Source: a virus | Taxonomy: Duplodnaviria > Caudoviricetes | Reading direction: 5' to 3' (one strand) | IMG/VR virus record: IMGVR_UViG_3300042402_000726 | Coordinates: 1 to 53,148 of that record | Length of the DNA: 53,148 bases | Made by a program: the position numbers and the translations under genes | In this document: positions 4,770-40,879 of the stretch, piece by piece | How the letters are laid out: each line of letters opens with the position of its first letter | Numbering within the stretch: position 1 is the first letter of the stretch | Notes under the pieces: generated by a model | The model's input: the letters and a program-made list of their open reading frames with translations, nothing else | The model's database searches: none | Told to the model about the DNA's origin: nothing

Positions 4770-7579
4770 TATTGTGCATCCTCTTTACTTGGCAAATCAC
4801 GAGATTTTCCTTCGCTAAGTTGATTTAACCTTCTTTTTTCAAGTGCAATTCGTTTTTGAAGTTGTTCCATGTAGTTCAACATAATGTCTTTACGAACTTC
4901 TTTACTTTTTGCTAACGCGCCAGACAGTTGAGCTTGTGCTGCGCGTTCACCTTCTGTTGGATTGCTTCCGAACACATCTTTCATTCTCGATAAACTTTCT
5001 GTACTTAATAAATTTACCAATTTTCCAGTGTTAACAACAGTTGGATCTTCTGGCGAGAACGTTTCACCGTATTTCTGTTTAGCTATGTCAAACACATTAC
5101 CGGTGTACGCTACATCATTCAAATCATACGCTTGCTCAATCATTTTTTGAGCATTTTGTAAATTATTTAGCGTGTCTTCTTTTTCCCATAGAACTTTTCT
5201 GTCATTAGGTGTTAGCTTTTCACCTTCTTTTTGTTTATCTAAATATTTTTGATGTTCAAGATCATATCTTTCTCTAGCAACATCTAGTTGACCACCAGAA
5301 ATACCCGCTTGAATACTAGAGGTATTAGCATTTTGAGCAGCAATAGAAGGTGCCATGAGCAGTTGATTAACTTTAGCTTGCAACAACGGTATTCCATACT
5401 CACTAACAAACTTTTGAAACTCTGGTGTTCCTACTTTATAACCGCGATCAATTGCAACTTTACCGGCTTCTGACTGCGCCTTGGGTATCTCAGCTTTAAT
5501 CATTTCAGAAATAATAGCACGCTTATCTTTCATGCTTTCGCCAGCAAGACCACGAAGCGTGTTCAAATCCTCTTTCGCATTAGCCGCTTTTAATTGTTGC
5601 GCTTTCATTTGAAGTTCAAGATCAGAATTTCTGCGACCAGTTTTCTCTTTAGAGTAATCCGCCATTTCTCGGTTAATATTGCTAAGTGACTCAGTGAAAC
5701 CACCTGTTTTTGTAGGCGCACCAGCCGCAGCCGCAAGACGGAAAAACAACTCTGCTTGACTTAGATTGTCGTTTTCTGGCTGTCTTGCCTTTTTAAACAT
5801 CTCCATGAACGCTTCAGTTTCAGCGTTTGATTTTCTGCGTGCTTCTTCAAGCTCTTGTGCATAGTCATTTGTTGGCGTGCCGTAGGCTTGCAACATTTCT
5901 TGCATTTTTGCCATGTTGTCGCTTGGTGGTGCTTGCACTGCAATTGGTGCAACAGGTGCTTCTACTGGCTGTGGAATGCCTTGCTCTGGATTAGGCATTG
6001 CGCTGTTAGCAATATCAACATCTCCACCCACCGCATATTTTCTCGCCATGTCATGTACTGAGCCGCCTTTGGCATAATAATAAGTATTGTAATCATCTTC
6101 ACTGTCAAATCCTTGTGTAAGCCAAGCAGGTTTAGAGGCTTGTTGCGTTACACTTGGTTGTGAAACCAGTGACGTTGTAGTTTTATCTACTGGCGTAGTG
6201 TTAGATATTTGTTGTGTTCCTGTATTTGTTACACCATTCTTAACAGCTAAGTCTGTTAATGTGGGTGTAGTTTCCATGAAGAACTTTCGCTTATATGAAG
6301 GCACACCATTTGCATCAACTCCTTGAAATACGCCTGGTGTTGCTCCTGGAGCAACAATATGAGGTGGTTCTACGGCTGGAATTGTTAATCGATTATTTAA
6401 AGCATCTCTAGTTGCTTGATCTATATCCGATGATTGATACGATGTTGTTGAATCTACAGTAAAAGGCTTAGTAATTACATCATTTTTAACAGCTAAGTCT
6501 GTTAATGTAGGTGTTGTGTTTGTTACGACGGGTGCTACAGATTGGTTATTCGCATTTATAAAACTATTCATTGCGGCAGTATCTGTGTAATCACCTTGAT
6601 ACCCTGCATTAACTGCTTTATCTTCTAACTGCTGTTGACTGCTAGGTGCATATGTGTAAGTTACGCTTGTATCTTTAGTATCATTTCTATGATCATACTC
6701 ATACTGAGATGCATAACCAAGTTTTTGCCATTCTGGTCTTGTATCTTTAGTATCAACCGGAACTTTAGTATCAACCGGAACTTGAGTTAAACCATCATTA
6801 CTATTTTTAGCATCTAAATCTTCCAGTTCAGATCCATATCCTTGTTGTTGCCATGTTGGAAGCGTTGCTTCATAACTGGCTTGATCTTTGAATCCTTTTT
6901 GTTTATAGAGTGGCGTATAAGGCGTGTAAGCACCTGTATAGGTTGGATCACCAATAACATCGTTCCAATACGTTCCTGTCTTATTGTAGTTATCAATGCT
7001 ACCGTAAGGATTATACATTCCTTCATAAGGATTTGCATTAGACGCACGAGTGAATTGCTGTTGCAAATACATAGGTGTTTGCGCAATACGATCTTGGTAT
7101 GCGGTTTTGTATTGGTTATAAATATCACCTTTGTTTGCGTCAAAATCTGCTTTATTATTTAAATACGTTTTATAATCTCCTAACGCTGTTTGATACTTAT
7201 TTTGTTTATATGCATAAGAATCTTTATTTTTAATATCCCCACTTACATAGGTGTCATAAGTTTTTTTCGTTGCATCATAAGCATTTTTTTGAGCAGTATA
7301 ATCAGCCAACGATGTTTGATATTCTGCCCATGACTTTTGTGCCGCATCTAAATCAGATTGTGTTTGACCTTTTGCTAATTTTGTTGGTTTAGCTTTAGTG
7401 CCAGAAGTTAAACCATAATCAGTAACTATTGGTGCTTTTAATGTAAAATCATCCGGTGCAACAGGTTTATCTGGTGCTGTAGGCTCATTGACTACCGTAC
7501 CTTTAAATTGCGCAGGCAACGCCATCGACGCAGAAGTTACCCCGTATTGCTTCATCAATTTTGATAATTCGCTTGGCAT
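4769..7579 (-). CDS. Putative internal virion / ejection protein with low-complexity N-terminal half
   Basis: Position in the ejection cluster, helical C-terminal half, two YAxGGxV motifs, internal repeats. Confidence 0.65.
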   Translation of the reverse strand: MPSELSKLMKQYGVTSASMALPAQFKGTVVNEPTAPDKPVAPDDFTLKAPIVTDYGLTSGTKAKPTKLAKGQTQSDLDAAQKSWAEYQTSLADYTAQKNAYDATKKTYDTYVSGDIKNKDSYAYKQNKYQTALGDYKTYLNNKADFDANKGDIYNQYKTAYQDRIAQTPMYLQQQFTRASNANPYEGMYNPYGSIDNYNKTGTYWNDVIGDPTYTGAYTPYTPLYKQKGFKDQASYEATLPTWQQQGYGSELEDLDAKNSNDGLTQVPVDTKVPVDTKDTRPEWQKLGYASQYEYDHRNDTKDTSVTYTYAPSSQQQLEDKAVNAGYQGDYTDTAAMNSFINANNQSVAPVVTNTTPTLTDLAVKNDVITKPFTVDSTTSYQSSDIDQATRDALNNRLTIPAVEPPHIVAPGATPGVFQGVDANGVPSYKRKFFMETTPTLTDLAVKNGVTNTGTQQISNTTPVDKTTTSLVSQPSVTQQASKPAWLTQGFDSEDDYNTYYYAKGGSVHDMARKYAVGGDVDIANSAMPNPEQGIPQPVEAPVAPIAVQAPPSDNMAKMQEMLQAYGTPTNDYAQELEEARRKSNAETEAFMEMFKKARQPENDNLSQAELFFRLAAAAGAPTKTGGFTESLSNINREMADYSKEKTGRRNSDLELQMKAQQLKAANAKEDLNTLRGLAGESMKDKRAIISEMIKAEIPKAQSEAGKVAIDRGYKVGTPEFQKFVSEYGIPLLQAKVNQLLMAPSIAAQNANTSSIQAGISGGQLDVARERYDLEHQKYLDKQKEGEKLTPNDRKVLWEKEDTLNNLQNAQKMIEQAYDLNDVAYTGNVFDIAKQKYGETFSPEDPTVVNTGKLVNLLSTESLSRMKDVFGSNPTEGERAAQAQLSGALAKSKEVRKDIMLNYMEQLQKRIALEKRRLNQLSEGKSRDLPSKEDAQ

Positions 7580-9007: not shown

Positions 9008-11223
9008 TACATTGCTCCTCTTAAATAGGCTAATGGTGACTTAGCGTCCGGACTAATTTTTCCTCTTGCTAACGCTTTACCTTTTTGTGCGCGAATTTCA
9101 CGACGCATTTTGTCGAGCATTTGCGCTCCTGCTTTGTTTGATCCATCACCAAGCAACGCGACAGTTTCAGCGTCAATGACGTATTCACCGTCGGACAATT
9201 TTGCGTCAATTGTATCATCTCGACCAGATCCTGCTCCACGAGCAAATCTCGCTAATGGACCGCCCATCGCTTTTAAAACCACGTTGTATTGACCAGAAGC
9301 AATGGTTGGCCATGATTGCGCCATAAACTCTGGCAAGCTCATGTTTCTAGCAGTAGCGTTTTGTTGCATTTTATCCCAATCCCAAGCGACGTTTGGACGA
9401 TTGAAATACTCTTGCTGTTGCTTAGATAATTGCGCTACTGAGTCTTGAACAGGAGCAGGCGCATCTGAGAACATGGATTTACCAAGTGTACCCAGTGCCA
9501 ACGCACCACCGCCAATAAGTGCGGCTTTACCCCAATCAAAACCTTCTTTTTTAGCTTGATCAGTTGCTACTTGATCTGGACTTGTTCCTTGGTTATACAC
9601 GCCATTAGCATTGTTAGTGTAATTTGTAGGACCAGTAGGCGCATTAAGAACATTAATACCGTTTCCTTGATTGCCACTAATTTGAGCATAGCTTTCTGGA
9701 ATAAGTGTGTTAGACCCTAAAACATTTGACGGACTTAAATTATCAAATCCGTATTGTGTGAACGGTGCAGTTACAGCCGTGTTTGTCTGATTTCCTGCAA
9801 ACGTAGGCGTTCCAACCTGTCCTGGTGCTTGTGGAGCTTGATTATCAGTAAAGCTACCATAACCACCACTAGGCGCAGAAGAAGCATAAGTGTTTTGCGC
9901 TAAACCAAGTAAGCCAGAATTAGGTTGATTTGGCACCCAAGATTCTGCTCCGGTTGCAGGATCTGTCACATATTGACCACCACCTAATGAAGGAGAGTTG
10001 TTAGCTAATCCTAAACTTGCCGTATCATGCCATCTAATTTCGTTTGGTCCTTGCAAACTATTAATCGCCATGTCAGATGGTTTCATACCAATATCACTAA
10101 CATTAACTTGTTTACCCATATCAAGACTAAAGTTTTTATTTCCAGCATTAATATCGTTTAATTTTGCTTGATTTGCAGCGGATATTTCAGCAGGGGTTTG
10201 ATACTGCAAACCAGCCGCTAAACCAGCTAAACCACCAGAAATTGCAGCTTGTTTTGGTTTAAATCCAGCAGTCAATGCGTTACCAAAACCTTGACCAGCT
10301 CGATTTAATCCAAGTCCGATTGCAGAATCAGTCCCAATCCCACTTGCTGCATTAGCAATAGCACCACCAGCCGCACCAGTAGCACCACCAACTAATGCGC
10401 CTTTAAGAACATTTCCACCAGATATTCCAGCATTAGCCGCCCCAACACCCGCACCAATCAATCCACCGCCAAGCGCAGCTTGTCCAGCTTTACCAAGTCC
10501 AAGTCCAAGTGCGCTACTTGCTGAACCTCCTAATTGACCACCAAGACCACCACTTAACGCACCACCGACACCACCCATCAATGCGCCTTTCCAGCCACCG
10601 TTAATGGCACCAAGTCCAGCACCAAGCGTTGCCCCGCCTGCCATTGCAGCGGCAGGTCCAGTAAGACCAAAAAGCGTTGAGCCTACAGCCGTACCAATAC
10701 CAGGAATAAACATCAAGGCTGCTGGCAAAATGATTGATGTAAAAATTTTGAAAATACTTTTATATTCGTGCAAACCCGTGTTTGGGTTGATAGTTCCAGC
10801 ACCACCCATACGCTTTAACATTTCAGCTTCACGATGGTTAATATGCGCAAGCATATCGTCACCACCACGACCAGCGGCTTGCAATCGTCTTGCGGCAGTA
10901 ACTAAACCACCACCAGCGTAACCTTTCTTATTAAGATGATCTTGCAGTCCATACAATGCAATTAGAAGCGACACAATAAACACTACGTCATATTGTGGAG
11001 GCACCATATTTTCTTGAATCAATCCGTCTTTAATTGCTGACGCACGCACTTCTTCATATTTGTCTGGGTTTTGCAAAACAAACTCAAGCATTGCAATTGC
11101 ATCATCAAGATCTTCTGGCACAATTGGCATGCGCTCAACTTGCTTTTCCATTTGAGAAACGCCCTGTTGGAAACGCGGATCTTGCTGCGCCATTTGCATA
11201 ATTACATTTCTAATTTCGCTCAT
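9007..11223 (-). CDS. Putative ejection protein with glycine-zipper region and two AxGG-associated modules
   Basis: YAGGGLV...GRGGDDMLAHIN.RE...GTINPNTGLHEY, a long Gly/Ala/Leu hydrophobic region, and AMGG...GSGRDDTIDAKLSDGEYVIDAETVALLGDG. Confidence 0.7.
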   Translation of the reverse strand: MSEIRNVIMQMAQQDPRFQQGVSQMEKQVERMPIVPEDLDDAIAMLEFVLQNPDKYEEVRASAIKDGLIQENMVPPQYDVVFIVSLLIALYGLQDHLNKKGYAGGGLVTAARRLQAAGRGGDDMLAHINHREAEMLKRMGGAGTINPNTGLHEYKSIFKIFTSIILPAALMFIPGIGTAVGSTLFGLTGPAAAMAGGATLGAGLGAINGGWKGALMGGVGGALSGGLGGQLGGSASSALGLGLGKAGQAALGGGLIGAGVGAANAGISGGNVLKGALVGGATGAAGGAIANAASGIGTDSAIGLGLNRAGQGFGNALTAGFKPKQAAISGGLAGLAAGLQYQTPAEISAANQAKLNDINAGNKNFSLDMGKQVNVSDIGMKPSDMAINSLQGPNEIRWHDTASLGLANNSPSLGGGQYVTDPATGAESWVPNQPNSGLLGLAQNTYASSAPSGGYGSFTDNQAPQAPGQVGTPTFAGNQTNTAVTAPFTQYGFDNLSPSNVLGSNTLIPESYAQISGNQGNGINVLNAPTGPTNYTNNANGVYNQGTSPDQVATDQAKKEGFDWGKAALIGGGALALGTLGKSMFSDAPAPVQDSVAQLSKQQQEYFNRPNVAWDWDKMQQNATARNMSLPEFMAQSWPTIASGQYNVVLKAMGGPLARFARGAGSGRDDTIDAKLSDGEYVIDAETVALLGDGSNKAGAQMLDKMRREIRAQKGKALARGKISPDAKSPLAYLRGAM

Positions 11224-28489: not shown

Positions 28490-31003
28490 TTACGGATTAA
28501 AGTTAATGCCGGTGCCTGTCGTTAATGACGTTCTGCTATCATTTGCAAGCTCTGCGGCAGTGATAAGTTTAGCAGTATTGTTGTCGGCTGTGTTAATTGC
28601 TTCACGCGCTTGAATCTCAGCCATTGCACGTTGATTCTCAGCATAGATTCTAGCCTGCTCTGATTGCATCTTGTCTGCACGTTCTTGCTGTTGTGCAGCA
28701 AGTTTTGCTTGTTCGGATTGCATCTGCGTTTGCAATTTAACTTGATCCAGTTGCAATTTTGCTTGATCAGTTTGCGCTCTTTGATCCAACGCTTTTTGTT
28801 GAATGCCAGCACTAATTTGCGCAATTTCAAGTGCATGATCTGGTGGAAGCTGTGGCTGTGGTTTAAATTGCTCTGCTTGCTTATCCATTTCTTGCAATTG
28901 TTCACTAAAGCCATTCATTTGCTGTTCGATAAATTGTTGCACTTGTAATATCAGTTGAACTTGATTTTGTGCTTCTTCTGGAATCAATTGCTGCTTTTGT
29001 GCTTTATCTACAGCATCATGAGTTTCAGTTAAATAATAATTAAGCAAATGATCGCGTAAATGCACCACCATTGGAAATAAAAACGTTTTCGCAATCACAG
29101 GATTTGACCCAAACAATGGCGATTTAACAAATGCCATGTGCGTAATGATGTGCGCCATGTGATCTTGCTGTGGAAGTACATAAATTCCCGAACCCATTGC
29201 AGCCGCAACGTTTTCTGACGCAGGATCCATGTCATCTTGTGCTGGTTTTGGTTTTAAAACCTCATTATCTGGCACTTTTAACGTGCGAAGGAACATTTCC
29301 TCGACTTTTCTTGCATCATATAGCTGCGGAAATATCTGAGAACGTTGCATAATCGCTTGAATTTGCGCAAAACGCTGTGTTTCACTGAAAATCGCAGGAT
29401 CACTGACCGGAATGATGTCCATTGGCCCATCAAAATCAGACGGTTCGATGTCAATTCCCGATTCTTGCGCTTTAATGTCTTCAATTGTCAGATAAGCACT
29501 GTTAATTCGGTGCAAAATCTTCAAACTACGCGCCATTGAGCTGTGTAAACGCGAATGAATCGAGTTAAATACCACCATACCCTGTTCAATCAACGCCATT
29601 GTGGTGCCGACTGGTTGATTTGGGTTCTGATCTGACAGTTTTTCAAACGTGGTTTGCACAACACCTTTGCCGGTATCAACAAGGAAGCCAAGCAACTGCA
29701 TCAAAACAGGTGATGGTCCGTTAAATGGCAATGGCATGGCAAGTTTGCGCACGTCATCAATCAACGCGCCACCTTCCATCTCGACCACTTCAGTGGGTTG
29801 CACGTTCAGCGTTTGACCGCCTGGTCCGCCTTTGAGCTTTAGTAGTGTTGGCACGTTTTGAATATGCGCTGAATCAAGCAATGCACGCAATGCGCCTGTT
29901 GCTGCGCCAGACAATCCGCCAATCATGTGAGTCAAGCCGATTGGATACGCACCACGCCAAGGAACAAAGGCAAATTCAACGATCCACTCCAACTCTTTGC
30001 GTTGTTCGTCTTCTGGCTCCCAGTTACGATACAGAGACAAACCTTTCTCGGTGGATTTGTCTACGCTTAAAATGTAAGGTTCCGGCCCATCACCAAAATC
30101 TAAGTATGTGTAGATCTCAAAAATAGTACGCAAACCGTCTTCGTTGTAGCTTAAATCTTTACGGCCTTCAATCTTGTCATTAGCTTGCGATGCTTTGCTA
30201 AACTCTGGATCTGTTGGTACACCCAAGTCAACATCGATGTACATACCGCTCTTGACGCGACGATTGTACTCAAACTTGGTAATGTACTGCACATGCGTTT
30301 TGCGTTCTGCTGTGTAGAAGTTTGTGGCTGCAAACGGCAAATAAATGTCATCGATAGGAACAAACTCTGCCATCGGACGTTTATAGAGTGGATTCCACAT
30401 GAATTTCATGTACTGACCACCACCAAGTGGAAGTTGCGTGCTTAACTGTTCAAGCTCACCACGAAACTCAACCATTTGCTCGGTTAATTGCCAGTTCATG
30501 AAGTCAGTCTTGCGATCTGCTTTCTCTACTTTGTCTTGATCCTTCTCACCAACAATTTTGCTTTTAACAGGACCGTTAGCGGGGAAAATCTCTTTCATCA
30601 CACGCGCAGAAAAATCCACGCACGCTTCAACCAGCATTGGATGCACAACTTTGTTTGCACCGGTAAACTGTGCGCCACCCGGTGCATCATCACCAAGACC
30701 AGTGCGTCGAATACCTTCTTCGTATTGTTTGTCGCGTTTCTCGCGTGCTTCTTTGTCGTTGGTGATCTTGTCAATAAGCTCATTGATAGCCATTGCAAGT
30801 TCACCTTGATCAACTTCTTCAATGATGTTGGCAAAATGCTCTGCGTTTTGTTGTGACTCTGCTTCATCTTGCAGGCGAACGATAGCACCACCATCCTCAG
30901 TGTCTTCAACGTCAGTTTCGTCGGTATCCTCAAAATCTACGTTTTCACCTTCTTGTGCATCCGGTTGTTCTTGATCTTCGTCGTCTTCAAATTGTTGTGC
31001 CAT
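28490..31003 (-). CDS. Portal protein (P22-like, with C-terminal helical barrel)
   Basis: 837 aa. HPMLVEACVDF.AR...E.FPA.GPVK, FMNWQLT, GALRALLDSA, PVGTTMALIEQG...IHSRLH, IIPVSDP, Gln-rich C-terminal coil. Confidence 0.9.
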   Translation of the reverse strand: MAQQFEDDEDQEQPDAQEGENVDFEDTDETDVEDTEDGGAIVRLQDEAESQQNAEHFANIIEEVDQGELAMAINELIDKITNDKEAREKRDKQYEEGIRRTGLGDDAPGGAQFTGANKVVHPMLVEACVDFSARVMKEIFPANGPVKSKIVGEKDQDKVEKADRKTDFMNWQLTEQMVEFRGELEQLSTQLPLGGGQYMKFMWNPLYKRPMAEFVPIDDIYLPFAATNFYTAERKTHVQYITKFEYNRRVKSGMYIDVDLGVPTDPEFSKASQANDKIEGRKDLSYNEDGLRTIFEIYTYLDFGDGPEPYILSVDKSTEKGLSLYRNWEPEDEQRKELEWIVEFAFVPWRGAYPIGLTHMIGGLSGAATGALRALLDSAHIQNVPTLLKLKGGPGGQTLNVQPTEVVEMEGGALIDDVRKLAMPLPFNGPSPVLMQLLGFLVDTGKGVVQTTFEKLSDQNPNQPVGTTMALIEQGMVVFNSIHSRLHSSMARSLKILHRINSAYLTIEDIKAQESGIDIEPSDFDGPMDIIPVSDPAIFSETQRFAQIQAIMQRSQIFPQLYDARKVEEMFLRTLKVPDNEVLKPKPAQDDMDPASENVAAAMGSGIYVLPQQDHMAHIITHMAFVKSPLFGSNPVIAKTFLFPMVVHLRDHLLNYYLTETHDAVDKAQKQQLIPEEAQNQVQLILQVQQFIEQQMNGFSEQLQEMDKQAEQFKPQPQLPPDHALEIAQISAGIQQKALDQRAQTDQAKLQLDQVKLQTQMQSEQAKLAAQQQERADKMQSEQARIYAENQRAMAEIQAREAINTADNNTAKLITAAELANDSRTSLTTGTGINFNP

Positions 31004-31041: not shown

Positions 31042-34000
31042 TCACATGTACTTGTTTGCTAATTCTTGTAAACCTACACTGCCGCCTTTTGCATAGCCAA
31101 GATTTCTAAGTACCTTATCGGTAATAATTCCGCCATAAGGTTTCATTTGTAATGCGCGAATATCTCTTGTTCTTGGATTTTTTAAATCCATCAAACCACG
31201 ATACTCTGCAACATCTGGCATTAGTTCATATGCACTTATATCTCTATCAAGCATACCTAATCCTTGACCGGGAACACCTTTAGGATATGCACGATGTCCA
31301 GACTCTTGAATAATAGGATTGCCAACAAATATTTGACCAACATTTTGTAAACCGGTATCGGGTGCTAAAAGTTGGCTAGGATCAGCAACAGCAAGTCTAG
31401 CTTCGCCAATGCTAATCCCACCAGCGTTTCTGTATTTTGTATCAAGATGATTTTTTAATTCTTTTCTAACTTTATCGGGTGTATTTCTAAATTGATCTAT
31501 ACCTTCTTCAGATTCAATCCCTTTAAAGTCTGGAATAAAATCTTTAATGCTTTTATTAACGGCACGTTTCTCTTTCTTGTTCATATTAGCGTTCATGTAC
31601 TTAAGCATTGTTTCGCCTGTCATGTTCGCATAATCTCCGCCCGTTGGAGCCATTCGCCAAGGCATATAAAGTGGATCAAGACCGCCCGTTCTTGCGCTTA
31701 ATTCTTTGCCATATTTCATAATGGCGTTAACTGGATCTTTCCCTGATGCCCATACTTGGCCTGGATTATTAAACATATAATCTTGACCGCCTTGTAAATC
31801 AACATCAACTGGACGATCATTAATGTAATGTAGCTTTCCAACATTAGTACGATCTGACATAGAAGTTACAAACGGATAGCCTTCATAATTTGCAAGACTA
31901 ATAATACGCTTTTCATTTTCTGGACGTGTCAACTGTAACATCATGTTTTGCAACTTTTCTTGCTCTAATTTTCTATCATCAAATCGCAAGTCATAACCTA
32001 AATCACCAATTCGTAATTTATGAATTGTACCAAGCACACCACTCGCAGACTCTGGAGCAAACGGCATCGCACCTGTCTGCGCAAGACCAGCAAGATCTAA
32101 ACCTGCCTGTGCCTGCTCATCCATTGACGGTTTAATCCCAACAGGATACCAGCTTGACTCATCCAGTATTTTTTGTGGTCTACCACCAGCAATGTCAACG
32201 TTGCGCATAAATGCATTGCCAGCACGCTTTGCCGCTTCAACTGGATGCAAGATTGTCGATGCAATCATTGAGTCGTTATCACCAAAGTTTTGTTTGGCAC
32301 TCATGTCATCAAAGTGCGCCATCGCTCTGCGATACAAACGCTCGTGCGCTGGATCTTCAAATTCTGATACTGAGCCACCGTCAGCATATTTATTAGCCAT
32401 TAAATCATCAAAATGCGCCATTGCTCTGTTATATAATCTTTCTGCTAAAGTATCGCTATTTACTGACCCACCATTGGCATATAAATCTTTTTCAGTAGCA
32501 AACACTGGCTTACCTTCTTTAATGCGCTTGTGTGCGTGTTCTATGGCTTTACTCACAATGTTATGTGGTATGTGTTCACCATCTTTAATTTTTAAGATGT
32601 GTTGCACTTCTTCTGTTGTCAATGTAGGTACAAGCGTTGGAATATCCATTTCTTTGTCATTGATAGGTACACCAATTGAATATTCGGTCATCACGCCAGT
32701 ACCGTCTGGACGCTCAAGCTCTCCAAAGTAGCCAAGACCTTTCTTGGTTTTGTCTGGTCTATCGCCATAGCCATAGTCACTTTCTTCGTACTTGTCGTGT
32801 AGTGCTTGCACGCTTCCGCCTTCAGCGTAACCTTTTTTTAAATACTTGTTGTAACGTGCATCAAGTGATTTTAATGATTTAGCATCAGTAAACTGTTCGT
32901 ATTGCTTTAACAGATCATCAAGCTCTCTATCTTTAGCACTTTTTAACATGTGAAAGTATTCATTCTTACCAGCGGTGCTGTTAATTACTCGTGCTAATTC
33001 TTCTGGATTGTCAGCATTACGACTTAAATATTCATGAAATCTTGGCAAATCTTCAACACCAAGACCAGATGCTTCATTGATGGCCTTTACTTCCTCATCA
33101 GATAAATTTTTTCCGAGCTTCATGCTGCCACCAATCAACCATTGACCCGTCATATTTGGACTGGTTTTGTATCGATAAAATCCACCTTCTGGCAATTGAT
33201 CTGTGATATGCGCAAACTTTGGAATCATAATGCCTTTTTTATTCATTCCTCGTTCGTTTGCCAATGTTTGCCAATCAACATCATTAGGAAACTCTACTTC
33301 TGCCCATGTATGTTCGCTTGGTCTATACACAGGAGGTTTACCACCTTTTCCAATATGCGTTGCAACAGGAACATCACCTGCATGCCAGCCTGGTCTATAC
33401 GCTAAAGGACCGAGTAATGATTTAACTTTATCTGCATTTTGAGTAGCAGGTGCGCCTGCTTCAGCTGCAACCCATTCATCAGATGGCACTGGCTTATCCG
33501 CATTTACAAACAATGGGTAAAGTGTATCTGGATCATTTTCTTTTGTTCTAAACAATTTATATGCTTTGACAGTTTTTTCTGGTGCGCCCATAGATAATGC
33601 CATTGGATTTAAATGTTCAATCAAATAATCTGGATCGCGCATTTGTTCAATTGTTGGCACGGTGTCTTCTAATGCAGTTTTTGTTGCATCAAAAAACTTA
33701 GTTGCATTTGGATAAGCACGCTTTAGTTGCTCTAAGTCTGCTGCATAATCGCCACCGCCAGCCAACTCATCCAGTTTAGACATAATGCTATCATCTGATA
33801 AATCCACTTCCCCGCCTTCTGCCCACTTAACCTTGTCCGCCCAGTACGCGGCACTGCTTTTTCCTTTGGCAATGTTCTTTGCATGACGTGCCTTGAACGA
33901 TTCACGCTTTGCTGTCATGCGATCTGACTCACCTTCTTTTGGCTTGCCTGCTGTTTCAGCACCTTGCTCACCAAAGCGAATTATCTTCTCTTTGCCATCG

Positions 34001-36240
34001 ACCATTGTTTTCACAATGTGTGACTTGGTTGGATGGTTTGGCGTGCGTTGTGGTTTGTCTAACTGCAAACTGTCTTTGTCTACTCTGCCGCCTTGTGCGT
34101 AGCCTTGATCATCATTAGGTAATTTTTGACGCAATGCTTCACGTTTATCATACGCCCAATCATACCAATCACTTCCAGTTTTGAAGTCTACGCCTTTAGG
34201 CATGCGTCTTGTTTTTCTGTACGCTTTCATTTGCTTTTCTAAATCATTGAAACGATCAATATCAGTGATTGGTTTAACTTTGTTTAAATTGCGCGTAACA
34301 ACACGCGGCACTTCATCACTGTAGGTAACGAAGTTGCGCACGCCTTCTGGATTAGCAACCTTTGCTTTTTCGCCCATGTAAGTCGTGCCTGGAATACCTA
34401 ACTCATAAAGTTTTTGTGCGCCTTCTTTACCAGAACCAAATCGTTGCAAAATTGAGCTACCTTTTTCAACAGGATCATAATCTGCACCTTCTGGATGATA
34501 CAAGTCTGGATCATGACTTTGCAGAATATTTCTAACGTATTCGCTTTGCTCAGAAAGTGGCTTGTCGTAATCAAGAAAATGCTCGATTGACATAGGATCA
34601 ACTGCTTCGCGCTCTTTTGGAAACTCCATTGACACTTCATACAAGTGTGAGCCTTTTTGCTTTTTGTATAAGTTTTCGCCAATCTTTTGCGCTGGCAATC
34701 GTTTTGGCAAATCTTCTGGATAATCAGCGTATGACTCGTTGAGATAGTCTTTTACTTCATCTGGACGCTCGTGCATCATGTAGCGTTCATACACTTCCAT
34801 CGATGGATAATCTTGACGACGCTCTGCTTGATTGTACAAATTCATCAATTGCTCATCCATCCAGTCATCCTGTGGTGAATAAGTAGTAGCAACATAAGGA
34901 TCCTCGGTAATGTAGTTACCCCACCCGTAAGCCTGCCCACCTTCACCAGATCCCATGTGTGCTGTGTCAAACTCTTTAAACTTGTGTGGTGATCCGTGAT
35001 AGCCTTTGATGGCCATGCCAACAGGTAAATCCTCGGTTGCCTTAACACCTGGTGCTAATGTTGTCAGTGCATCAGCAAGTGACTGCGCACGACCACGTTT
35101 AAACTGTGGTACGTTGCTCATCTCTGGTATCTGCATTGGTGCATTGCCATAAGACCAGTTCTCAATCTCCTCTGGTGTTTTGCCCATGAGTAAATCACCA
35201 GCACCTAAGCCACCGGCTAGTGGCACCCAACTTGGAACTGTGTATTGATTGCCAACGTCACGCGCACTGCCAAGCATCTCGGCAAGTTTGCCAAGGTTCT
35301 CGTTTTGGTCTTGTGCTTTTACAATCCCACCTTCTGCGTACTTCTCTTTCAGCTCATCCAAACTACCAGCACGCTTTGTAATTTCTGGATACTCATCACC
35401 GAACATGACGTAATTTCTTGTGCCTTTGTCAGTGCTACGCGATGTTGCGTCTAAGTATTTAAGACCAGGTATGTCAAGGTTTTTTAAATATTGTTCAGCG
35501 TCTTTAATGGCAGATGCAAATTCATCATCATATCCGCTACGCATATATTTTAAAAAACTCTCTCCAGTTTTTTGTGACGGATCTAAATACCATTGTTTCT
35601 GATCTTTGTAAGCCTTGTTAGCGTTTTTGTAAAAATCAGATTTTTTTAATTTGTTTCTTACATAATCACTTTGCTCGCTCAATGGTTGATCCCAGTCTAG
35701 CAAATGATGCTCACCAAGTGGATCTGTTGCTTCACGCTCTGCGTTAGGCCAACGGATTGAGGTTTCGTAGATGTTTCCGCCTTTTTGCGCTTTCATATCT
35801 TCTATTTCTTGCAACAAAGCAGCTTCTTTTTCTTTATCACCTCTTAATTTTGCGGTATCAGCATGGTATTTTTTTAAAAATATTTTATTTTGATACTCAT
35901 CAACTGGAACACCTGCTGTCATATAAGTTTTTGCAACCAAAGGATTTTCTGCAAAATAAAGTCCATGTCCATATGCTTGCGCACCTTCGCCTGTTCCAAT
36001 CTTTGACATGTCAAACCGATCAAACAAATGTGGCGTACCATGATAGGCTTTGATCGCACCACCAAGTCCAGCGGTATCAATAATGAAATTAGGATCACGC
36101 ATCTGCTCAGTCGTTGGAACTGAACGCACCGCTGCGTCTTTTAATCCAGTGATGAATTTTGTCGCATTAGGATAACCACCAAGCAATTGCTCGTAGTCTT
36201 CTAAGCCATATCTGCTTGCTAAATCTTTTAAGTCTGCCAT
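31042..36240 (-). CDS. Large polyvalent (multi-effector) protein with two ADP-ribosyltransferase-like domains and at least four other modules, separated by [YW]AxGGxV motifs
   Basis: ATG at 36240 with GGAG RBS. YHGTPH.F..FD...IGTGEGAQAYG.GLYFAE and YHGSPH.F..FD...MGSGEGGQAYG.G.YITE. Seven AxGG motifs and duplicated leader segments. Confidence 0.8.
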   Translation of the reverse strand: MADLKDLASRYGLEDYEQLLGGYPNATKFITGLKDAAVRSVPTTEQMRDPNFIIDTAGLGGAIKAYHGTPHLFDRFDMSKIGTGEGAQAYGHGLYFAENPLVAKTYMTAGVPVDEYQNKIFLKKYHADTAKLRGDKEKEAALLQEIEDMKAQKGGNIYETSIRWPNAEREATDPLGEHHLLDWDQPLSEQSDYVRNKLKKSDFYKNANKAYKDQKQWYLDPSQKTGESFLKYMRSGYDDEFASAIKDAEQYLKNLDIPGLKYLDATSRSTDKGTRNYVMFGDEYPEITKRAGSLDELKEKYAEGGIVKAQDQNENLGKLAEMLGSARDVGNQYTVPSWVPLAGGLGAGDLLMGKTPEEIENWSYGNAPMQIPEMSNVPQFKRGRAQSLADALTTLAPGVKATEDLPVGMAIKGYHGSPHKFKEFDTAHMGSGEGGQAYGWGNYITEDPYVATTYSPQDDWMDEQLMNLYNQAERRQDYPSMEVYERYMMHERPDEVKDYLNESYADYPEDLPKRLPAQKIGENLYKKQKGSHLYEVSMEFPKEREAVDPMSIEHFLDYDKPLSEQSEYVRNILQSHDPDLYHPEGADYDPVEKGSSILQRFGSGKEGAQKLYELGIPGTTYMGEKAKVANPEGVRNFVTYSDEVPRVVTRNLNKVKPITDIDRFNDLEKQMKAYRKTRRMPKGVDFKTGSDWYDWAYDKREALRQKLPNDDQGYAQGGRVDKDSLQLDKPQRTPNHPTKSHIVKTMVDGKEKIIRFGEQGAETAGKPKEGESDRMTAKRESFKARHAKNIAKGKSSAAYWADKVKWAEGGEVDLSDDSIMSKLDELAGGGDYAADLEQLKRAYPNATKFFDATKTALEDTVPTIEQMRDPDYLIEHLNPMALSMGAPEKTVKAYKLFRTKENDPDTLYPLFVNADKPVPSDEWVAAEAGAPATQNADKVKSLLGPLAYRPGWHAGDVPVATHIGKGGKPPVYRPSEHTWAEVEFPNDVDWQTLANERGMNKKGIMIPKFAHITDQLPEGGFYRYKTSPNMTGQWLIGGSMKLGKNLSDEEVKAINEASGLGVEDLPRFHEYLSRNADNPEELARVINSTAGKNEYFHMLKSAKDRELDDLLKQYEQFTDAKSLKSLDARYNKYLKKGYAEGGSVQALHDKYEESDYGYGDRPDKTKKGLGYFGELERPDGTGVMTEYSIGVPINDKEMDIPTLVPTLTTEEVQHILKIKDGEHIPHNIVSKAIEHAHKRIKEGKPVFATEKDLYANGGSVNSDTLAERLYNRAMAHFDDLMANKYADGGSVSEFEDPAHERLYRRAMAHFDDMSAKQNFGDNDSMIASTILHPVEAAKRAGNAFMRNVDIAGGRPQKILDESSWYPVGIKPSMDEQAQAGLDLAGLAQTGAMPFAPESASGVLGTIHKLRIGDLGYDLRFDDRKLEQEKLQNMMLQLTRPENEKRIISLANYEGYPFVTSMSDRTNVGKLHYINDRPVDVDLQGGQDYMFNNPGQVWASGKDPVNAIMKYGKELSARTGGLDPLYMPWRMAPTGGDYANMTGETMLKYMNANMNKKEKRAVNKSIKDFIPDFKGIESEEGIDQFRNTPDKVRKELKNHLDTKYRNAGGISIGEARLAVADPSQLLAPDTGLQNVGQIFVGNPIIQESGHRAYPKGVPGQGLGMLDRDISAYELMPDVAEYRGLMDLKNPRTRDIRALQMKPYGGIITDKVLRNLGYAKGGSVGLQELANKYM

Positions 36241-36249
36241 GGTCAACTC

Positions 36250-38325
36250 CTAGTAATTATGTGGCGCATCAATTGATGCAACGATGTCGTCTACTTTCAT
36301 AGGATCGTACATTGTTGGTGGTGTGCCGACAAGTCCACCGTTGGCAAAATTGACATTTTTTTGAAGAAAGTCATCCATCAATGATTCAATCTCATTATCA
36401 GTTGCATATCTTCCAAACTTTTCTTTTGCTATGTTTTGCAATTCTGGATGAAGATGAGAGTTTTCTCGATTTAAATCAATCAACCCAGTGTTTTCAAAAT
36501 CCCCAACACTCGACCAATCTTTTGATCTCACAAAGTCTTGCACAGCAGGAAGATATTTTGCATTAGGCGCAGCGTTTTGTTTGCCTTTGATTTGAACGAT
36601 TTTTGGCGGAGCATCACCATATATCATGCGCATATATTCATTTGCGGCATCTAAATCTTTTAAATGCGGGTTTTGTTGATTGTACTCAGCTATATTTGCT
36701 TGAAGAATCTTACGTTCATCATTGGGTAAGTTCATATAAATATTTTCATAATGATGCGCAGGATTCATATTTGTTGTTTCAATCGTCACATGCGGTTCAC
36801 CACGTCTATCACGCAATGAGTAAATATTGGTATCACCCCTTCCTACCTCATCACAATACTGACCGACACAATGCCCCATCGTGTCACCTTCAAAATTCAG
36901 TGCGGCTTGTAGTGCATCACGTCTTTCAATTTCTTTATAATCAAGCAAAGCATCTTCTGGTGTAGTGCCGCTAGACCATACCACACCATTTTGATCAAAT
37001 ATTGCTGGATTACCACGACTGTTTTCAGCTATATAATGACCTTCCTGCAATGTAGGCTCTGGCATTTTCATTTGCATCCAAGCTAATCCTTGATCTGGAT
37101 ATTCTTTGTGCATTACGGTTGCAGCGTTGCGACCTTCTTTGAGCTTCTCAGCGTCACGCCATGCGTTGATCTTGGCAACATGCTCAACAGCCTGCGGCAT
37201 GGAAACGCGACTGAGCTTTGCTGGATCTATGCGCAAAAAGTCTGGAAGATCTGTGTCTGGGCGTGTAGCTTTGCGAAGTTCGTCAGCAAGTTTGTCAAAT
37301 CCAGTTCCCATCATACTATCTGGTAGATAAACCCTATCTTCATCGCTAAGGTTTGATAGCCAAGGATTTCTGTTTTTATCCTCGCTATTAACGTATTTAA
37401 CTGTTATAGGCGTAATGTTTCTATCAGCGTAATGTTCCCACAGTTTACCTATGCCGGTTTTTGCAATCCCTTCTACTGGGTATCCTGCACTGTGACGTTT
37501 ATCCATCACATCATCAATGTCAAATTCACGAGGATCTCTTGGCGTGTAATGCAGAGGATTGTAACCTTCAAGCTCTGAGATCTTGTCTTGAATTGTAAGA
37601 GCATCTCTATTGGCATTAGCCATGCGATTAGCAATTACCTCTGGTGGTAATCCCATGTCTTCATACTTAGCGGCAAGCTCTTGCAAGTTTGGGATCTTTG
37701 ATTGTTGCTGACTGATAAGCACATCACGTTTGGCAGGCCATTCCTCCGCAATGCGTCGAATAGGATCTTCTGGCGTACCCATTTCGTTTTTGATGTACTT
37801 GCCGAGCTTTTGCTGTAGCCAATCGTTAACTGCCATGACCGGTACAGTTTCATTATATTCGTGTGGCATTAGGTGCATACCGGCACGCGCATAACCAGCA
37901 AGCTCTGGATCTACTGATCGAGTAAATTGATTAGCGGCTTTTTCTGGCGTTCTGCCAAAAGTATCAAGCCAATTACCACCCTTTGGCTTGATGATCATCC
38001 CAACATTGCCAGCCATTGCATTGCGTGCGGTGCTTTCGGCAGGACCGGCAAGCAACATGGCTGTGTCAGCTAACGATTGTGCGCGTCCTTTTTTGAATTG
38101 CGGTACGTTACTCATCTCCGGAACACGCATAGGCGCATCACCATATGACCAGTTTTCTATTTCTTCGGGTGCGTTTCCAAGTAACATGTCACCAGCACCA
38201 GATCCACCAAGTAGCGGAACCCAGTCTGGAACAGAATATTGATTGCCAGATGATTTGGCGGTTTGAAGAAGCTCTGCAAGTTTTGCAAGGCTAGGCTGTT
38301 GTGGTATTGCTCTGTTATACGGCAT
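36250..38325 (-). CDS. Polyvalent-type protein with a PcfJ-like C-terminal domain
   Basis: EGDTMGHCVGQY...IYSLRD..GEPHVTIE...IVQIKGKQN. N-terminal leader shared with 31042..36240. C-terminal FANGGLV. Confidence 0.75.
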   Translation of the reverse strand: MPYNRAIPQQPSLAKLAELLQTAKSSGNQYSVPDWVPLLGGSGAGDMLLGNAPEEIENWSYGDAPMRVPEMSNVPQFKKGRAQSLADTAMLLAGPAESTARNAMAGNVGMIIKPKGGNWLDTFGRTPEKAANQFTRSVDPELAGYARAGMHLMPHEYNETVPVMAVNDWLQQKLGKYIKNEMGTPEDPIRRIAEEWPAKRDVLISQQQSKIPNLQELAAKYEDMGLPPEVIANRMANANRDALTIQDKISELEGYNPLHYTPRDPREFDIDDVMDKRHSAGYPVEGIAKTGIGKLWEHYADRNITPITVKYVNSEDKNRNPWLSNLSDEDRVYLPDSMMGTGFDKLADELRKATRPDTDLPDFLRIDPAKLSRVSMPQAVEHVAKINAWRDAEKLKEGRNAATVMHKEYPDQGLAWMQMKMPEPTLQEGHYIAENSRGNPAIFDQNGVVWSSGTTPEDALLDYKEIERRDALQAALNFEGDTMGHCVGQYCDEVGRGDTNIYSLRDRRGEPHVTIETTNMNPAHHYENIYMNLPNDERKILQANIAEYNQQNPHLKDLDAANEYMRMIYGDAPPKIVQIKGKQNAAPNAKYLPAVQDFVRSKDWSSVGDFENTGLIDLNRENSHLHPELQNIAKEKFGRYATDNEIESLMDDFLQKNVNFANGGLVGTPPTMYDPMKVDDIVASIDAPHNY

Positions 38326-39865
38326 AAGGATTCACTCGCTCACGTTTTGGCTCACGTCGCTCGTCGATGTCCTTTGCTACCGGTAACTCAAACCATCCAT
38401 CGTCTTTGAGATAGATGACCGCCTGCGTGAACGTATCGACATAGTCGTCGTGTTCTGCCACTGGAAATTTTGCCAGTTGTTTTAAAAATGCAGCCGCCCA
38501 ACTAACAGGTTGACCACGATTCTTTTTAGACTCTGGGATCCACAACAAACCCAACTCTAATGTCGGTGCAGCTTGGTGTGCGCGTGAAATCTTGTCTGCT
38601 TTACCGGGATTATAACCCACTGCTGGAACTTTCGCCAATCTCAGATCCTGCAATAATGACTGCCCACTTGCCTTGGCTTCCACCAGGATACGATCCGGTC
38701 TGCGTGCGCGTGAATGTGGTGACTCTTTTGACATCCCACCATACTCGGTTGTCCAATCCTTGATTGCCTTGGCACGCAGATCTGGGTAGCTGAGATGTTC
38801 ATCCCACGCATCAATGAGCATTGCGTTGCGCTCGCCCTTGTGCGTAAACATTGCCCACACGGTGCAAGCCGTTGGATCGCCTGTGGTCTTCTCGGTGAAC
38901 GCGCAGTCGTATGACTGCAAGATGTATTCAAACGGAGGCAAGCCATCATCTGCTGACCATAAGCCAAAGTATTTGGTCTTGAGGATACCACCAGATACCG
39001 GTGCTGGATCTTGCTGCAACTGTCCAGCAGTACCATATTCACCCAGCAGTTGCTTGAGCATCGTGATTTCTTTATCGCCAAACCGATCTGGGCAGATCAG
39101 CTCGCCTTTTACTTTACGAGGATCATACGCACCAAGGATAGTTTTACGATGCTTACCATCCCACTCTGCGGGAATACAGATATGCTCCCAGCCTTTGATG
39201 TCGTTTAAGATATGACCGCTGATGTCACGCTCGTGCAAACGTTGCATGACCGTCACCATCGCATCGGTTTTTGGGTTATTAAGACGTGTTGACCACACCA
39301 TGTCAAACCACTCGAGGTCTGACTCACGCATCGCTTCAGACTGAGCCGCCTGTGCGCCATGTGGATCATCCAGTATCAATCGTGATCCACCCTCACCCGT
39401 TGCCGTACCGCCAACAGACGTTGCAAGTCGATAGCCAGTCTTGTCGTTTTCAAAACGTTGCTTGGCGTTCTGATCGCCAGCAAACTTGAACATGTGACCC
39501 CAACGCTCTTGATACCAAGGTGACTGTAGCAATCTTCGTGTCTTCAAATTGTCGCGTGTTGACAGCGTGCCAGAATAAGACGCGCAAAGGAACTTCTGAG
39601 CAGGATCTGTGATCCACTCCCATGCCGGCCACATCACTGACACAATCGTTGATTTAGAATGACGCGGAGGAATGTTGATGAGCAGTCGATGTATCTCGCC
39701 AGCACTGACTGCTTCGAGATGCTCGCAAATCTCCTCGATGTGCCATGACTCCATGAATTGAATACCGGGTTCAACGACATGCCATGACTGTTTAACAAAT
39801 TCATAGAGTGAAGCAGACGCTGCGCGTCGTGCCTTCTCAGCCTTGACCTTTTCAAGCAGTGTCAC
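38315..39865 (-). CDS. terL: Terminase large subunit
   Basis: LLINIPPRHSKS (Walker A), LILDDPH (Walker B), VMQRLHERD, LQQDP, QSYDCA, VEAKASG, HDDYVD. Confidence 0.95.
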   Translation of the reverse strand: MTLLEKVKAEKARRAASASLYEFVKQSWHVVEPGIQFMESWHIEEICEHLEAVSAGEIHRLLINIPPRHSKSTIVSVMWPAWEWITDPAQKFLCASYSGTLSTRDNLKTRRLLQSPWYQERWGHMFKFAGDQNAKQRFENDKTGYRLATSVGGTATGEGGSRLILDDPHGAQAAQSEAMRESDLEWFDMVWSTRLNNPKTDAMVTVMQRLHERDISGHILNDIKGWEHICIPAEWDGKHRKTILGAYDPRKVKGELICPDRFGDKEITMLKQLLGEYGTAGQLQQDPAPVSGGILKTKYFGLWSADDGLPPFEYILQSYDCAFTEKTTGDPTACTVWAMFTHKGERNAMLIDAWDEHLSYPDLRAKAIKDWTTEYGGMSKESPHSRARRPDRILVEAKASGQSLLQDLRLAKVPAVGYNPGKADKISRAHQAAPTLELGLLWIPESKKNRGQPVSWAAAFLKQLAKFPVAEHDDYVDTFTQAVIYLKDDGWFELPVAKDIDERREPKRERVNPYAV

Positions 39866-40398
39866 GCACTCGCCTTTTGAAGTAGCGCATGCATCGTATC
39901 CAGTTCATCATCGCTCAACCCTTTAAAATCACCAGCCGTTTGTTGCGTGTTGTTGATCTGAATGGCGGTATCAATGTCTTTGCCTAGGATTGTTTCTTTT
40001 CCTTTTTGCAGTGCATTCTGCGCTTGCGTGTGTTCTTGGATGGTAATTGTTTCATCCACTTTGCGCATCATAGTGGACAAATTCTTCATGGTAGATTTCT
40101 TAAAGAACTCTAAATGACTGAGTCTTTCGTTAACCAAATCATTATGCACAATGATGTCTGTTTCTTTTAATGTATCCTTCTGTTTCTTTATTTCGCTAAG
40201 TGATTGTTTTGCGGCTGTTTCTTTTATTACAAGCTGTTTCTTTTCTTCAGACTTAATCCAATTGTATTTTGTAGCACGTTTACTTATCTGTGATCGTGAT
40301 TTAATGCTTACATTTTCACGCTCGACTATCTCAGCCAGTGATAATCCAGCCTCATAATAACTTTGCACCAATTGCCAATCTTTTTCACTGTAAGCCAT
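39862..40398 (-). CDS. terS: Putative terminase small subunit
   Basis: N-terminal HTH (W..V...YEAG.SL.EI...ISKRA....W), helical middle, LSDDEL C-terminus. Overlaps the terL start. Confidence 0.7.
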   Translation of the reverse strand: MAYSEKDWQLVQSYYEAGLSLAEIVERENVSIKSRSQISKRATKYNWIKSEEKKQLVIKETAAKQSLSEIKKQKDTLKETDIIVHNDLVNERLSHLEFFKKSTMKNLSTMMRKVDETITIQEHTQAQNALQKGKETILGKDIDTAIQINNTQQTAGDFKGLSDDELDTMHALLQKASA

Positions 40399-40879
40399 TG
40401 ATCACCTCATCTACATTTGATAGTGCATCATCAATGTATTGCAAATCTTTTTCATCAAGCCTAAACCATTCACCACGCACATGTTTTTTATTAAAAAAGA
40501 TGTGTAGCATTTTTTCTATAGTTGCCGGTGCTTTGGTTTCGTAGGCTTTGAATGCAAATAAATTATAAGGACATCCAGTTTGCATTGAGCTTAACCTTGA
40601 ATTTATATCATTGGTGATGCCAATCTTGTAAATACCATCAAATTCTTTAGCAGTGATAATGTAAAGAATATTAGATGCTTTGATCCATTTTATTTTGTTT
40701 TGTTCTTCTTCTGATAATACGCTTTTAAACACGTCTTTTTGCCAACCACGTTGTTTGGCTTGTTTTGAAATGTTTGATCCATCAATACCTGTCAAAGCTG
40801 TAATTTGTCTTAAAGATTTTCCATCTTCATAAAAACCTTTTGCTTTTGCCCAGGCTTCTTGCGTCGCCCTCTTTGCCAT
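40385..40879 (-). CDS. GIY-YIG-superfamily (T5orf172/MUG113-like) endonuclease fused to a TerS-like HTH
   Basis: LYII...YKIGITNDINSRL..MQTGCPY.L...IEKMLH..F...HVRGEWFRL. N-terminus resembles the TerS HTH. Confidence 0.82.
   Translation of the reverse strand: MAKRATQEAWAKAKGFYEDGKSLRQITALTGIDGSNISKQAKQRGWQKDVFKSVLSEEEQNKIKWIKASNILYIITAKEFDGIYKIGITNDINSRLSSMQTGCPYNLFAFKAYETKAPATIEKMLHIFFNKKHVRGEWFRLDEKDLQYIDDALSNVDEVINGLQ

Follow-up and report, generated by a model that had tools for sequence, protein, structure and literature searches.

Between the genes for the large terminase subunit (TerL) and the portal protein, the podovirus-like phage genome IMGVR_UViG_3300042402_000726 (53,148 bases; called the window here, meaning the whole stretch of DNA that was analysed) carries two consecutive minus-strand genes, gp691 and gp1734, that form a modular polyvalent locus. 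Three interchangeable families of leader segments (leaders A, B and C) precede the large payload domains, and a short motif conserved at the protein level, [YFW]-A-x-G-G-x-V (the joint), marks the borders of the modules. This organisation is real and well ordered, and the modules have recently been exchanged between diverged phages, with breakpoints at joints and leader ends. Judged from its domains, gp1734 belongs to the polyvalent proteins as defined by Iyer, Burroughs, Anand, de Souza and Aravind (2017, PMC5512222), with several effector-type domains, among them ART-PolyVal, and a position beside the packaging genes. As to function, we give a little better than even likelihood to a reading in which the capsid takes up leader-adapted modules and releases them along with the DNA, the joint serving as processing site or hinge.

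Five leaders are present in the window, with lengths of about 105 amino acids (aa) for A, 40 aa for B and 100 aa for C, and three of the five are internal segments of the single long open reading frame (ORF) of gp1734. The original prediction, made from the DNA alone, had described two copies each of leaders A and B, and self-BLAST of both gene products finds them at these places: the A copies share 60.6% identity over 109 aa (E 1e-39) and the B copies 56% identity over 41 aa (E 4e-12). The 'third leader' that it had suspected is real, too: four other proteins (P0167, P0168, P0171 and P0191) carry leader C N-terminally, at aa 21-130. Searches by tblastn in the six frames of the window gave no further copies of A, B or C, apart from one chance-level row for B (E 0.028), and no Pfam or PHROG model covers leader A. 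Within each leader pair the similarity ends at a small-residue junction and unrelated domains follow: behind VGM(I/A)IK, the end of leader A, there is a PcfJ-type module in one copy and an ART domain in the other; behind leader B there is an ART domain in one copy and a phrog_30118 domain in the other. Across all four positions the payloads are not unrelated, as the two ART regions (gp1734 aa 61-292 and aa 409-652) are homologous with 34-45% identity. All five large payloads have a leader of their own; the small modules, of 85, 109 and 24 aa, lack one.

At the nucleotide (nt) level, the leader A copies are 61% and the leader B copies 62% identical, and at identical residues the third codon positions agree in about 48%, with silent sites near saturation. 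By these comparisons, the leader copies of the window are old paralogues kept by protein-level selection and not recombination substrates; recombination between copies within the genome is ruled out by longest exact runs of 12 nt for A and 6 nt for B. The proposal that leaders provide the homology for shuffling thus fails within the genome and stands only between related phages, in which the leaders are 90-100% identical.

The main module boundary, missed by the original prediction, is the joint, with eight copies; it is present at all module borders of gp1734 and, in gp691, ahead of the 25-aa tail. A six-frame scan of the window gave 11 matches, all within ORFs of at least 693 codons; the remaining three mark what appear to be domain borders in a 738-aa and a 936-aa protein encoded in the tail-distal part of the late block. 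In related proteins the motif is frequent: 84 of 188 (121,319 aa) contain 213 strict joints, compared to 0.70 expected (mean of 200 composition-preserving shuffles, maximum 5). The codons for Ala, Gly and Val vary among the eight copies, indicating conservation of the protein rather than of the DNA, and a role of the joint as DNA recombination signal is ruled out by these variable silent positions. The aromatic residue of the joint belongs to the module that precedes it: in SIO1, a stand-alone homologue of the 85-aa module has as its last residue the same Trp that stands before AEGG in the window, gp691 itself terminates at Tyr, and an Acinetobacter phage homologue of the 109-aa module diverges directly behind the equivalent Tyr. 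Since stand-alone modules and gene ends stop at the aromatic residue, AxGGxV is present only where modules are fused.

Joints are also found close to protein ends: 55 of the 213 are at most 35 aa away from the C-terminus, peaking at 25 aa, and tandem mini-modules of 22-25 aa, each closed by a joint, stand at protein ends. These terminal joints, kept even in proteins with a single payload, would suit a repeated docking peptide, formed by the joint and the short helix upstream of it, that ties an uncut chain to the inner capsid, the portal or the core, much as encapsulin cargo-loading peptides dock their cargo. Such a peptide would also fit the tail of gp691, which is better conserved than its payload (88-100% versus 59-82% identity in relatives), and the lack of a recognisable protease in the window (see below). 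We nevertheless regard it as unlikely, because the joint is missing exactly where modules stand alone or are separate genes, as a fusion linker or cleavage site predicts, and because the T7-like relatives with leader A have no joint.

The leaders recur beyond this genome, and the domain behind them varies, so that neither of the two outcomes by which the original prediction would have been refuted is seen. When viral contigs were scanned by pattern, leader A was confirmed in 37 of 426 matches, from 35 loci, and leader B in 14 of 111, from 13 loci; the 48 reading frames bearing leaders correspond to 38 distinct proteins of 111-1,980 aa. Pfam searches with 32 of these (left out were two short fragments and four near-duplicates, three of them of L020 or L028 and one of L033) found PcfJ in 11, ART-PolyVal in eight, DUF7178 in five, PBECR5 and GNAT in one each and no family in ten. 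A leader A profile built from 13 sequences and searched against 1.84 billion representatives matched 379 clusters at E<=1e-3, of which 214 reach E<=1e-10 and 30 reach E<=1e-30. In 119 of the best 150 the leader begins no later than residue 30, in 21 it begins between residues 31 and 110 and in 10 further in. Of the 150, 133 continue for at least 100 residues past the leader, and these payloads form 46 BLAST clusters (35 singletons; the biggest with 39, 16 and 15 members). Pfam families in the same 150 proteins are PcfJ (30), ART-PolyVal (12), LPD23 (8) and TAT_signal (2), and PBECR5, DUF7178, DUF6973, DUF6782 and GNAT are found once each. As far as profile searches tell, leader A is a large and widespread unnamed domain family that is mostly N-terminal; leader B is more restricted, all of its 41 proteins being close to the lineage of the window.

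The combinations of leader and payload were counted by mapping reference domains derived from the window onto 214 non-redundant proteins; this replaced a single-linkage clustering of segments, which had over-merged multi-domain segments (F01 and F03). Leader A stands directly before ART in 19 cases, before the PcfJ module in 15, before phrog_30118 and the C-terminal payload of gp1734 in one each and before other or unknown sequence in 136 (16 more leader A proteins are truncated). For leader B the corresponding numbers are 21, 18, 5, 0 and 7, and for leader C 3, 1, 3, 12 and 11, so that the leader-payload matrix in the relatives is near-complete. ART2, which follows leader A in the window, sits behind a leader B variant at 93-95% identity in five proteins (P0185, P0187-P0190), ART1 sits behind leader C at 95% identity in P0191, and the PcfJ module with its tail is found behind leader B in 13 stand-alone proteins. 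Leaders are therefore cassettes too, as the same payload occurs behind A, B or C. The exchange of C-terminal parts that had been proposed is thus seen, but it runs both ways, leaders being swapped on a constant payload as well; likewise, each leader has many payloads, as expected for exchangeable effectors, but in multi-module chains and not in genes of one leader plus one toxin.

Exchange between phages was analysed by blastn of the region from TerL to portal against 42 loci, of which 20 gave ends of high-scoring segment pairs (HSPs) at an identity of at least 85%. Modules are 95-98% identical in nucleotide sequence between relatives, compared to about 87% for TerL and 75-79% for portal. The locus L008, for example, has 87.9% identity to the window in TerL and 78.8% in portal, and 97.0% in the part that encodes gp1734 aa 1-408 and 95.6% in that for aa 1320-1722. 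Of 97 HSP ends, 64 are no more than 30 nt away from a boundary (46 at a joint, 16 at a leader end and two at the gene junction); random placement brings 11.2 ± 3.1 ends near a boundary, with a maximum of 25 in 2,000 trials. Two loci (L007 and L016) have an insertion of about 290 aa exactly at the border between leader A and ART2. Clustered breakpoints, together with the predicted disorder of the joint regions, would also be expected if leaders and joints were passive spacers, conserved only because working chimeras need tolerant breakpoints between domains. This is highly improbable: passive spacers would keep neither a seven-residue motif (213 copies versus 0.7 expected) nor a family of about 90 aa with invariant residues, 379 clusters and saturated silent sites.

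The genomic context in other phages is mostly that of virion genes. A leader gene lies between TerL and portal in L003, L004, L018 and L027, and TerL is upstream also in L010 and L032. Phage DSL-LC04 has, after TerL, a gene with three joint-like copies, yet another leader and a PcfJ module, and then portal. The Caulobacter phage KcrB has only a tRNA (tRNA-Val) between TerL and portal, and the locus is therefore accessory. In a T7-like lineage (L019, L020, L023, L024 and L033), the leader A gene follows the tail-tube genes (phrog_394 and phrog_376), adjoins the 'internal virion protein' families phrog_418 and phrog_6651 and is followed by a tail fibre gene.

Structure prediction adds a provisional picture of leader A. 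AlphaFold2 models it alone (49 sequences, mean predicted local distance difference test (pLDDT) 64.8) as a long helix, two short helices, a small hairpin, a further helix and a disordered tail; in a model that includes joint, leader A, ART2 and joint (14 sequences, mean pLDDT 59.6) the first half of the leader reaches 73-83 and its last ~40 residues and both joints stay below 50. Foldseek found no match of the leader A model in the PDB at E<=0.001 (best template modelling score 0.28), and the best score in the ESM Atlas, 0.81, is at chance level. A complex prediction of leader A with the portal scored 0.00 (mark 0.32), which counts neither for nor against an interaction. A small folded unit with a floppy tether, as modelled, would resemble an adaptor, and adaptors could also act in the host cell: the leaders may be targeting or regulatory prodomains (directed for example to polymerase, ribosome or membrane) or may keep the enzyme inactive, and a leader swap would then re-aim the enzyme. 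Three leader types in one genome, and one leader for each large enzyme-like payload but for no other module, even within one chain, are in line with this. Still, leader A is mostly found at the extreme N-terminus (119/150), the genes lie among terminase and portal genes or internal virion genes in several lineages, which a role in the virion explains at least as well, and searches of Pfam, Foldseek and the Atlas gave no similarity to a known host-binding domain; we consider leaders that act in the host cell doubtful.

Packaging of the modules as capsid cargo, the reading we favour, would work as follows. The two genes form an accessory 'cargo' locus that would encode chains of putative effector modules, built by a grammar of leader, payload, aromatic residue and joint (A-x-G-G-x-V). 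The proteins would be loaded into the capsid and ejected together with the DNA, as suggested by gene context and by two precedents: Iyer 2017 proposed this route for polyvalent proteins, and it has been shown for Alt and the internal proteins of T4. The leaders would be interchangeable adaptors that anchor a payload at a site within the virion or direct the way it leaves. The original prediction had called them conserved trafficking leaders; they are conserved and reused, and it is the gene context that points to trafficking. The chain would be processed at the joint, or the joint would at the least be a flexible hinge that is obligatory; either way the modules could act separately. Processing is the weakest part of this reading, because the window ORFs that were scanned gave no protease family apart from the M15 endolysin and because joints near protein ends fit a docking peptide equally well.

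Several points weigh against packaging as cargo or narrow it. When HSP ends are reduced to distinct positions, 34 remain, 16 of them near a boundary; nor are the ends independent events, as related loci share ancestry. Pfam and PHROGs searches of 63 window ORFs gave an M15 endolysin as the only protease, with no T4-type prohead protease and no Ulp1/adenain-like protease among the scanned ORFs; a cutting enzyme would therefore have to be unrecognised or host-derived. Leaders inside a polyprotein could act as N-terminal signals only if the chain is cut; otherwise they would have to work as internal domains. They are not simply adaptations to different capsids either, since three types coexist in one genome. 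The leader A proteins of the T7-like lineage carry no joint, so that leader and joint are independent features, and one leader A locus (L035) has no head genes nearby. As 94 of the best 150 leader A proteins match no Pfam family, 'effector' is an assumption for most payloads. Finally, the leader A models are of moderate confidence and without a fold match.

Phages are believed to deliver their polyvalent proteins into the cell before any others. Iyer et al. (PMC5512222) proposed, in the passages that concern us, that such proteins are packaged and possibly processed, and they describe features shared with gp1734: giant multi-domain chains with several enzymatic effector domains, a position beside portal and terminase genes and domain mosaicism. 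ART-PolyVal is found in the window, and LPD23 and PBECR5 in leader A relatives. The window proteins differ in that no peptidase domain, whether zincin-like, assemblin-like or other, and no MuF domain was detected, and the leader layer (A, B and C) and the [YFW]AxGGxV joint are additions to the architecture as described in these passages. In the passages of PMC5512222 found by word search, 'linker', 'glycine' and 'PcfJ' do not occur; other parts of the text or its supplementary files may list such motifs. Literature searches for 'ART-PolyVal' gave papers on a eukaryotic family, and for PcfJ in phages there was nothing relevant among the matches listed.

The original prediction had compared the locus with polymorphic toxins, and the likeness lies in the evolutionary logic but does not extend to membership. 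Polymorphic toxins, including the phage MuF toxins, likewise combine a conserved N-terminus with a hypervariable enzymatic C-terminus, separated by a sharp junction and exchanged by recombination (see Jamet et al. 2017, PMC5576092). In the window there is no immunity gene (no small ORF on the coding strand between gp691 and gp1734 or between gp1734 and portal), and neither gp691 nor gp1734 has a Pfam match at E<=0.1 to MuF, PT-TG, PT-VENN or PT-HINT, the one Atlas cluster for PT-TG having a chance-level score of 0.77. Several leader-payload units are strung in one chain, and leaders are swapped on constant payloads.

Phage T4 offers a further parallel. Its capsid-targeting sequence has about 10 residues and is cut off by the gp21 protease at Leu/Ile-x-Glu. 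This sequence is all that the T4 internal proteins have in common, according to the passages on them in PMC3012670, and it loads diverse proteins to be injected, including an ADP-ribosyltransferase (Alt), into the prohead by a shared N-terminal segment. In contrast, the leaders of the window have 40-105 aa and are unrelated in sequence, no T4-type protease gene was found among the window ORFs scanned, and the repeated motif is based on Gly-Gly. Viral polyproteins with Gly-Gly-X processing include pp220 and pp62 of African swine fever virus (ASFV) and those of adenovirus. The window resembles these structural or core polyproteins in having a repeated Gly-Gly motif at module borders, which is a resemblance of the motif only, and differs in that no Ulp1/adenain-like protease was detected (on Gly-Gly-X processing, see PMC10308890). 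A literature search for virion polyproteins of phages that are cut at Gly-Gly gave no paper on phages.

The locus provides a testable grammar of leader, payload, aromatic residue and Gly-Gly joint, and metagenomes already hold the natural swap experiments. If the leaders are loading or delivery signals, this would explain how injected weapons are exchanged as cassettes among phages, the 379-cluster family would flag unknown injected effectors, and in laboratory strains the leaders could be used to bring proteins of choice into phage capsids. Cleavage at the joint, if it takes place, would imply a protease activity yet to be discovered. A more far-reaching version, which we think rather unlikely, sees leaders and joint as a general plug-and-play cargo system of podovirus-like phages, in which leaders label distinct sites in the capsid or ejection apparatus and the joint is recognised by a Gly-Gly-specific processing enzyme. 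In such a system this enzyme, possibly the PcfJ-type module itself with its invariant His-Cys pair and further conserved Cys and His residues, would release modules before or after injection, and the joint in two other large virion-type proteins would be a genome-wide maturation signal.

The ART-PolyVal match in gp1734 (PF18760) scores 41 bits in two stretches (gathering cut-off 31.2). A YHG[ST]PH...GxGxYGxGxY block is conserved in the alignment of ART modules; the ART module profile found only weak tankyrase rows in the PDB (E 0.85). The PcfJ match in gp691 has 29.8 bits (cut-off 25) and is restricted to aa 476-519 and to profile positions 77-122 of 147. PDB searches by phmmer and profiles with gp1734, gp691 and the alignments of leader A plus ART and of PcfJ gave no significant match, and the C-terminal payload of gp1734 has no match in Pfam, PDB or the ESM Atlas (best Atlas score 0.81, chance level). 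The two larger leaderless modules occur elsewhere: the 85-aa module (phrog_7595) stands alone in SIO1-like phages, cyanophages and CRP phages, and the 109-aa module is found by itself next to genes for endolysin or terminase in Acinetobacter phages and as the C-terminal part of a 685-aa Pseudomonas phage protein.

In the PcfJ-type module, between gp691 aa 479 and 516 (~36778-36891, minus strand), His485, Cys486 and Arg505 are invariant in 24 aligned relatives and Cys491, Asp506, His512 and Glu516 nearly so; this pattern suggests a metal or catalytic centre. A stand-alone ART-like protein of 387 aa is encoded by Sulfitobacter phage phiGT1 (L051, 4713-5876), two genes past portal and ahead of the scaffold gene. 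Its N-terminal region, of about 125 aa, is a different one and passes into the ART core through a similar small-residue junction; the protein may thus carry a further leader type.

The morphogenesis block of the window is on the minus strand and starts with a small-terminase-like gene (39862-40398), followed by TerL, gp691, gp1734, portal, a GroES-like gene and a charged helical protein of 301 aa; the major head protein (24677-25591) comes next, then adaptor, tail and lysis genes. A putative scaffold lies at 26836-27741. Replication genes occupy the right end, on the plus strand. By portal, the closest cultured relatives are the Caulobacter phages RW/KcrB (51% identity), the Roseobacter phages CRP-901/902, the Pelagibacter phages HTVC023P/027P and phage DSL-LC04. 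Genes gp691 and gp1734 share one frame and are split by a single TAG and one codon (36240-36255): gp691 ends with TAC-TAG, an AGGAG ribosome-binding site stands 6 nt before the ATG of gp1734, and gp1734 begins 9 nt after gp691. From this arrangement the true start of gp1734 is likely the ATG at 36240. A read-through fusion of gp691 and gp1734 (~2,430 aa) is conceivable but not needed, since the AGGAG lies 6 nt ahead of the gp1734 ATG. All features are listed in Table 1.

Table 1. Leaders, payloads, joints and flanking genes in the window
Feature	Position	Strand	Basis or remark
Terminase large subunit (TerL), upstream neighbour	38315..39865	-	phrog_38, E 5.7e-90
gp691: leader A, PcfJ-type payload, joint, 25-aa tail	36250..38325	-	ORF
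Leader A copy 1, gp691 aa 5-113	37987..38313	-	60.6% identity to copy 2
PcfJ-type payload, gp691 aa 114-659	36349..37986	-	Pfam PF14284
Joint FANGGLV, gp691 aa 660-666	36328..36348	-	self-BLAST, six-frame scan
25-aa tail mini-module ending in Tyr, gp691	36253..36327	-	followed by TAG, AGGAG, next ATG
gp1734 polyvalent protein, seven modules	31042..36246	-	likely start ATG 36240, 1,732 aa
Leader B copy 1, gp1734 aa 17-57	36076..36198	-	56% identity to copy 2
ART-like payload 1, gp1734 aa 61-292	35371..36066	-	phrog_31411, phrog_25279; homologous to payload 2
Joint YAEGGIV, gp1734 aa 303-309	35320..35340	-	self-BLAST, six-frame scan
Leader A copy 2, internal, gp1734 aa 310-414	35005..35319	-	self-comparison
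ART-PolyVal payload 2, gp1734 aa 415-652	34291..35004	-	PF18760, best stretch aa 410-509
Joint YAQGGRV, gp1734 aa 716-722	34081..34101	-	self-BLAST, six-frame scan
85-aa leaderless module	33826..34080	-	phrog_7595, E 8.9e-34
Joint WAEGGEV, gp1734 aa 808-814	33805..33825	-	self-BLAST, six-frame scan
Leader B copy 2, internal, gp1734 aa 837-877	33616..33738	-	self-comparison
phrog_30118 payload, gp1734 aa 891-1139	32830..33576	-	phrog_30118, E 3.3e-53
Joint YAEGGSV, gp1734 aa 1140-1146	32809..32829	-	self-BLAST, six-frame scan
109-aa leaderless module	32482..32808	-	homologues in other phages
Joint YANGGSV, 24-aa mini-module and joint YADGGSV, gp1734 aa 1256-1293	32368..32481	-	
Leader C ('third leader'), gp1734 aa ~1305-1410	32017..32334	-	N-terminal in four other proteins
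C-terminal payload of unknown family, gp1734 aa 1411-1717	31096..32016	-	95-98% nt identity in relatives
Joint YAKGGSV, gp1734 aa 1718-1724, then 10-aa tail	31075..31095	-	self-BLAST, six-frame scan
Portal protein, downstream neighbour	28490..31003	-	phrog_1216
Joint YAGGGLV in 738-aa Gly-rich membrane-like protein (ORF 9007-11223)	10900..10920	-	
Two joints around 6-aa spacer in 936-aa protein (ORF 4769-7579)	6017..6076	-	

The two joint-containing proteins outside the locus have no match in the family databases: neither Pfam nor PHROG matched the 738-aa protein, and no family matched the 936-aa protein. The former begins with a domain of about 100 aa, followed by one joint and a 'DDMLAHINHREAEML...NPNTGLHEY' stretch that looks conserved; further on it is Gly-rich and hydrophobic over a long region, and there is a C-terminal 'DDTIDAKLSDGEYVIDAETV' stretch. 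By its sequence it looks like an ejection or membrane-inserting virion protein. In the 936-aa protein, two joints 6 residues apart (aa ~502-521) halve the chain in the same way as joints separate polyvalent modules.

Directly after portal, the head module has a GroES/Cpn10-like gene (27755-28165, minus strand; PF00166, E 4e-8), and a gene annotated as co-chaperonin GroES is also found downstream of portal in KcrB and DSL-LC04. Two nuclease genes on the minus strand may be mobile insertions: a T5orf172/MUG113 (GIY-YIG-like) gene upstream of the small-terminase-like gene (40385-40879) and an endonuclease VII gene between head and tail genes (23910-24557). In two relatives (L044, 3288-5981, and L045, 1881-4574), TerL has 897 aa and its terminase match is split into aa 4-165 and 546-870; judged from this split, the gene has an insertion of about 380 aa, perhaps an intein or homing element. 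In KcrB (L052, 2445-5248), the annotated TerL is in two pieces, with a gene for an S-adenosylmethionine (SAM)-dependent methyltransferase between them.

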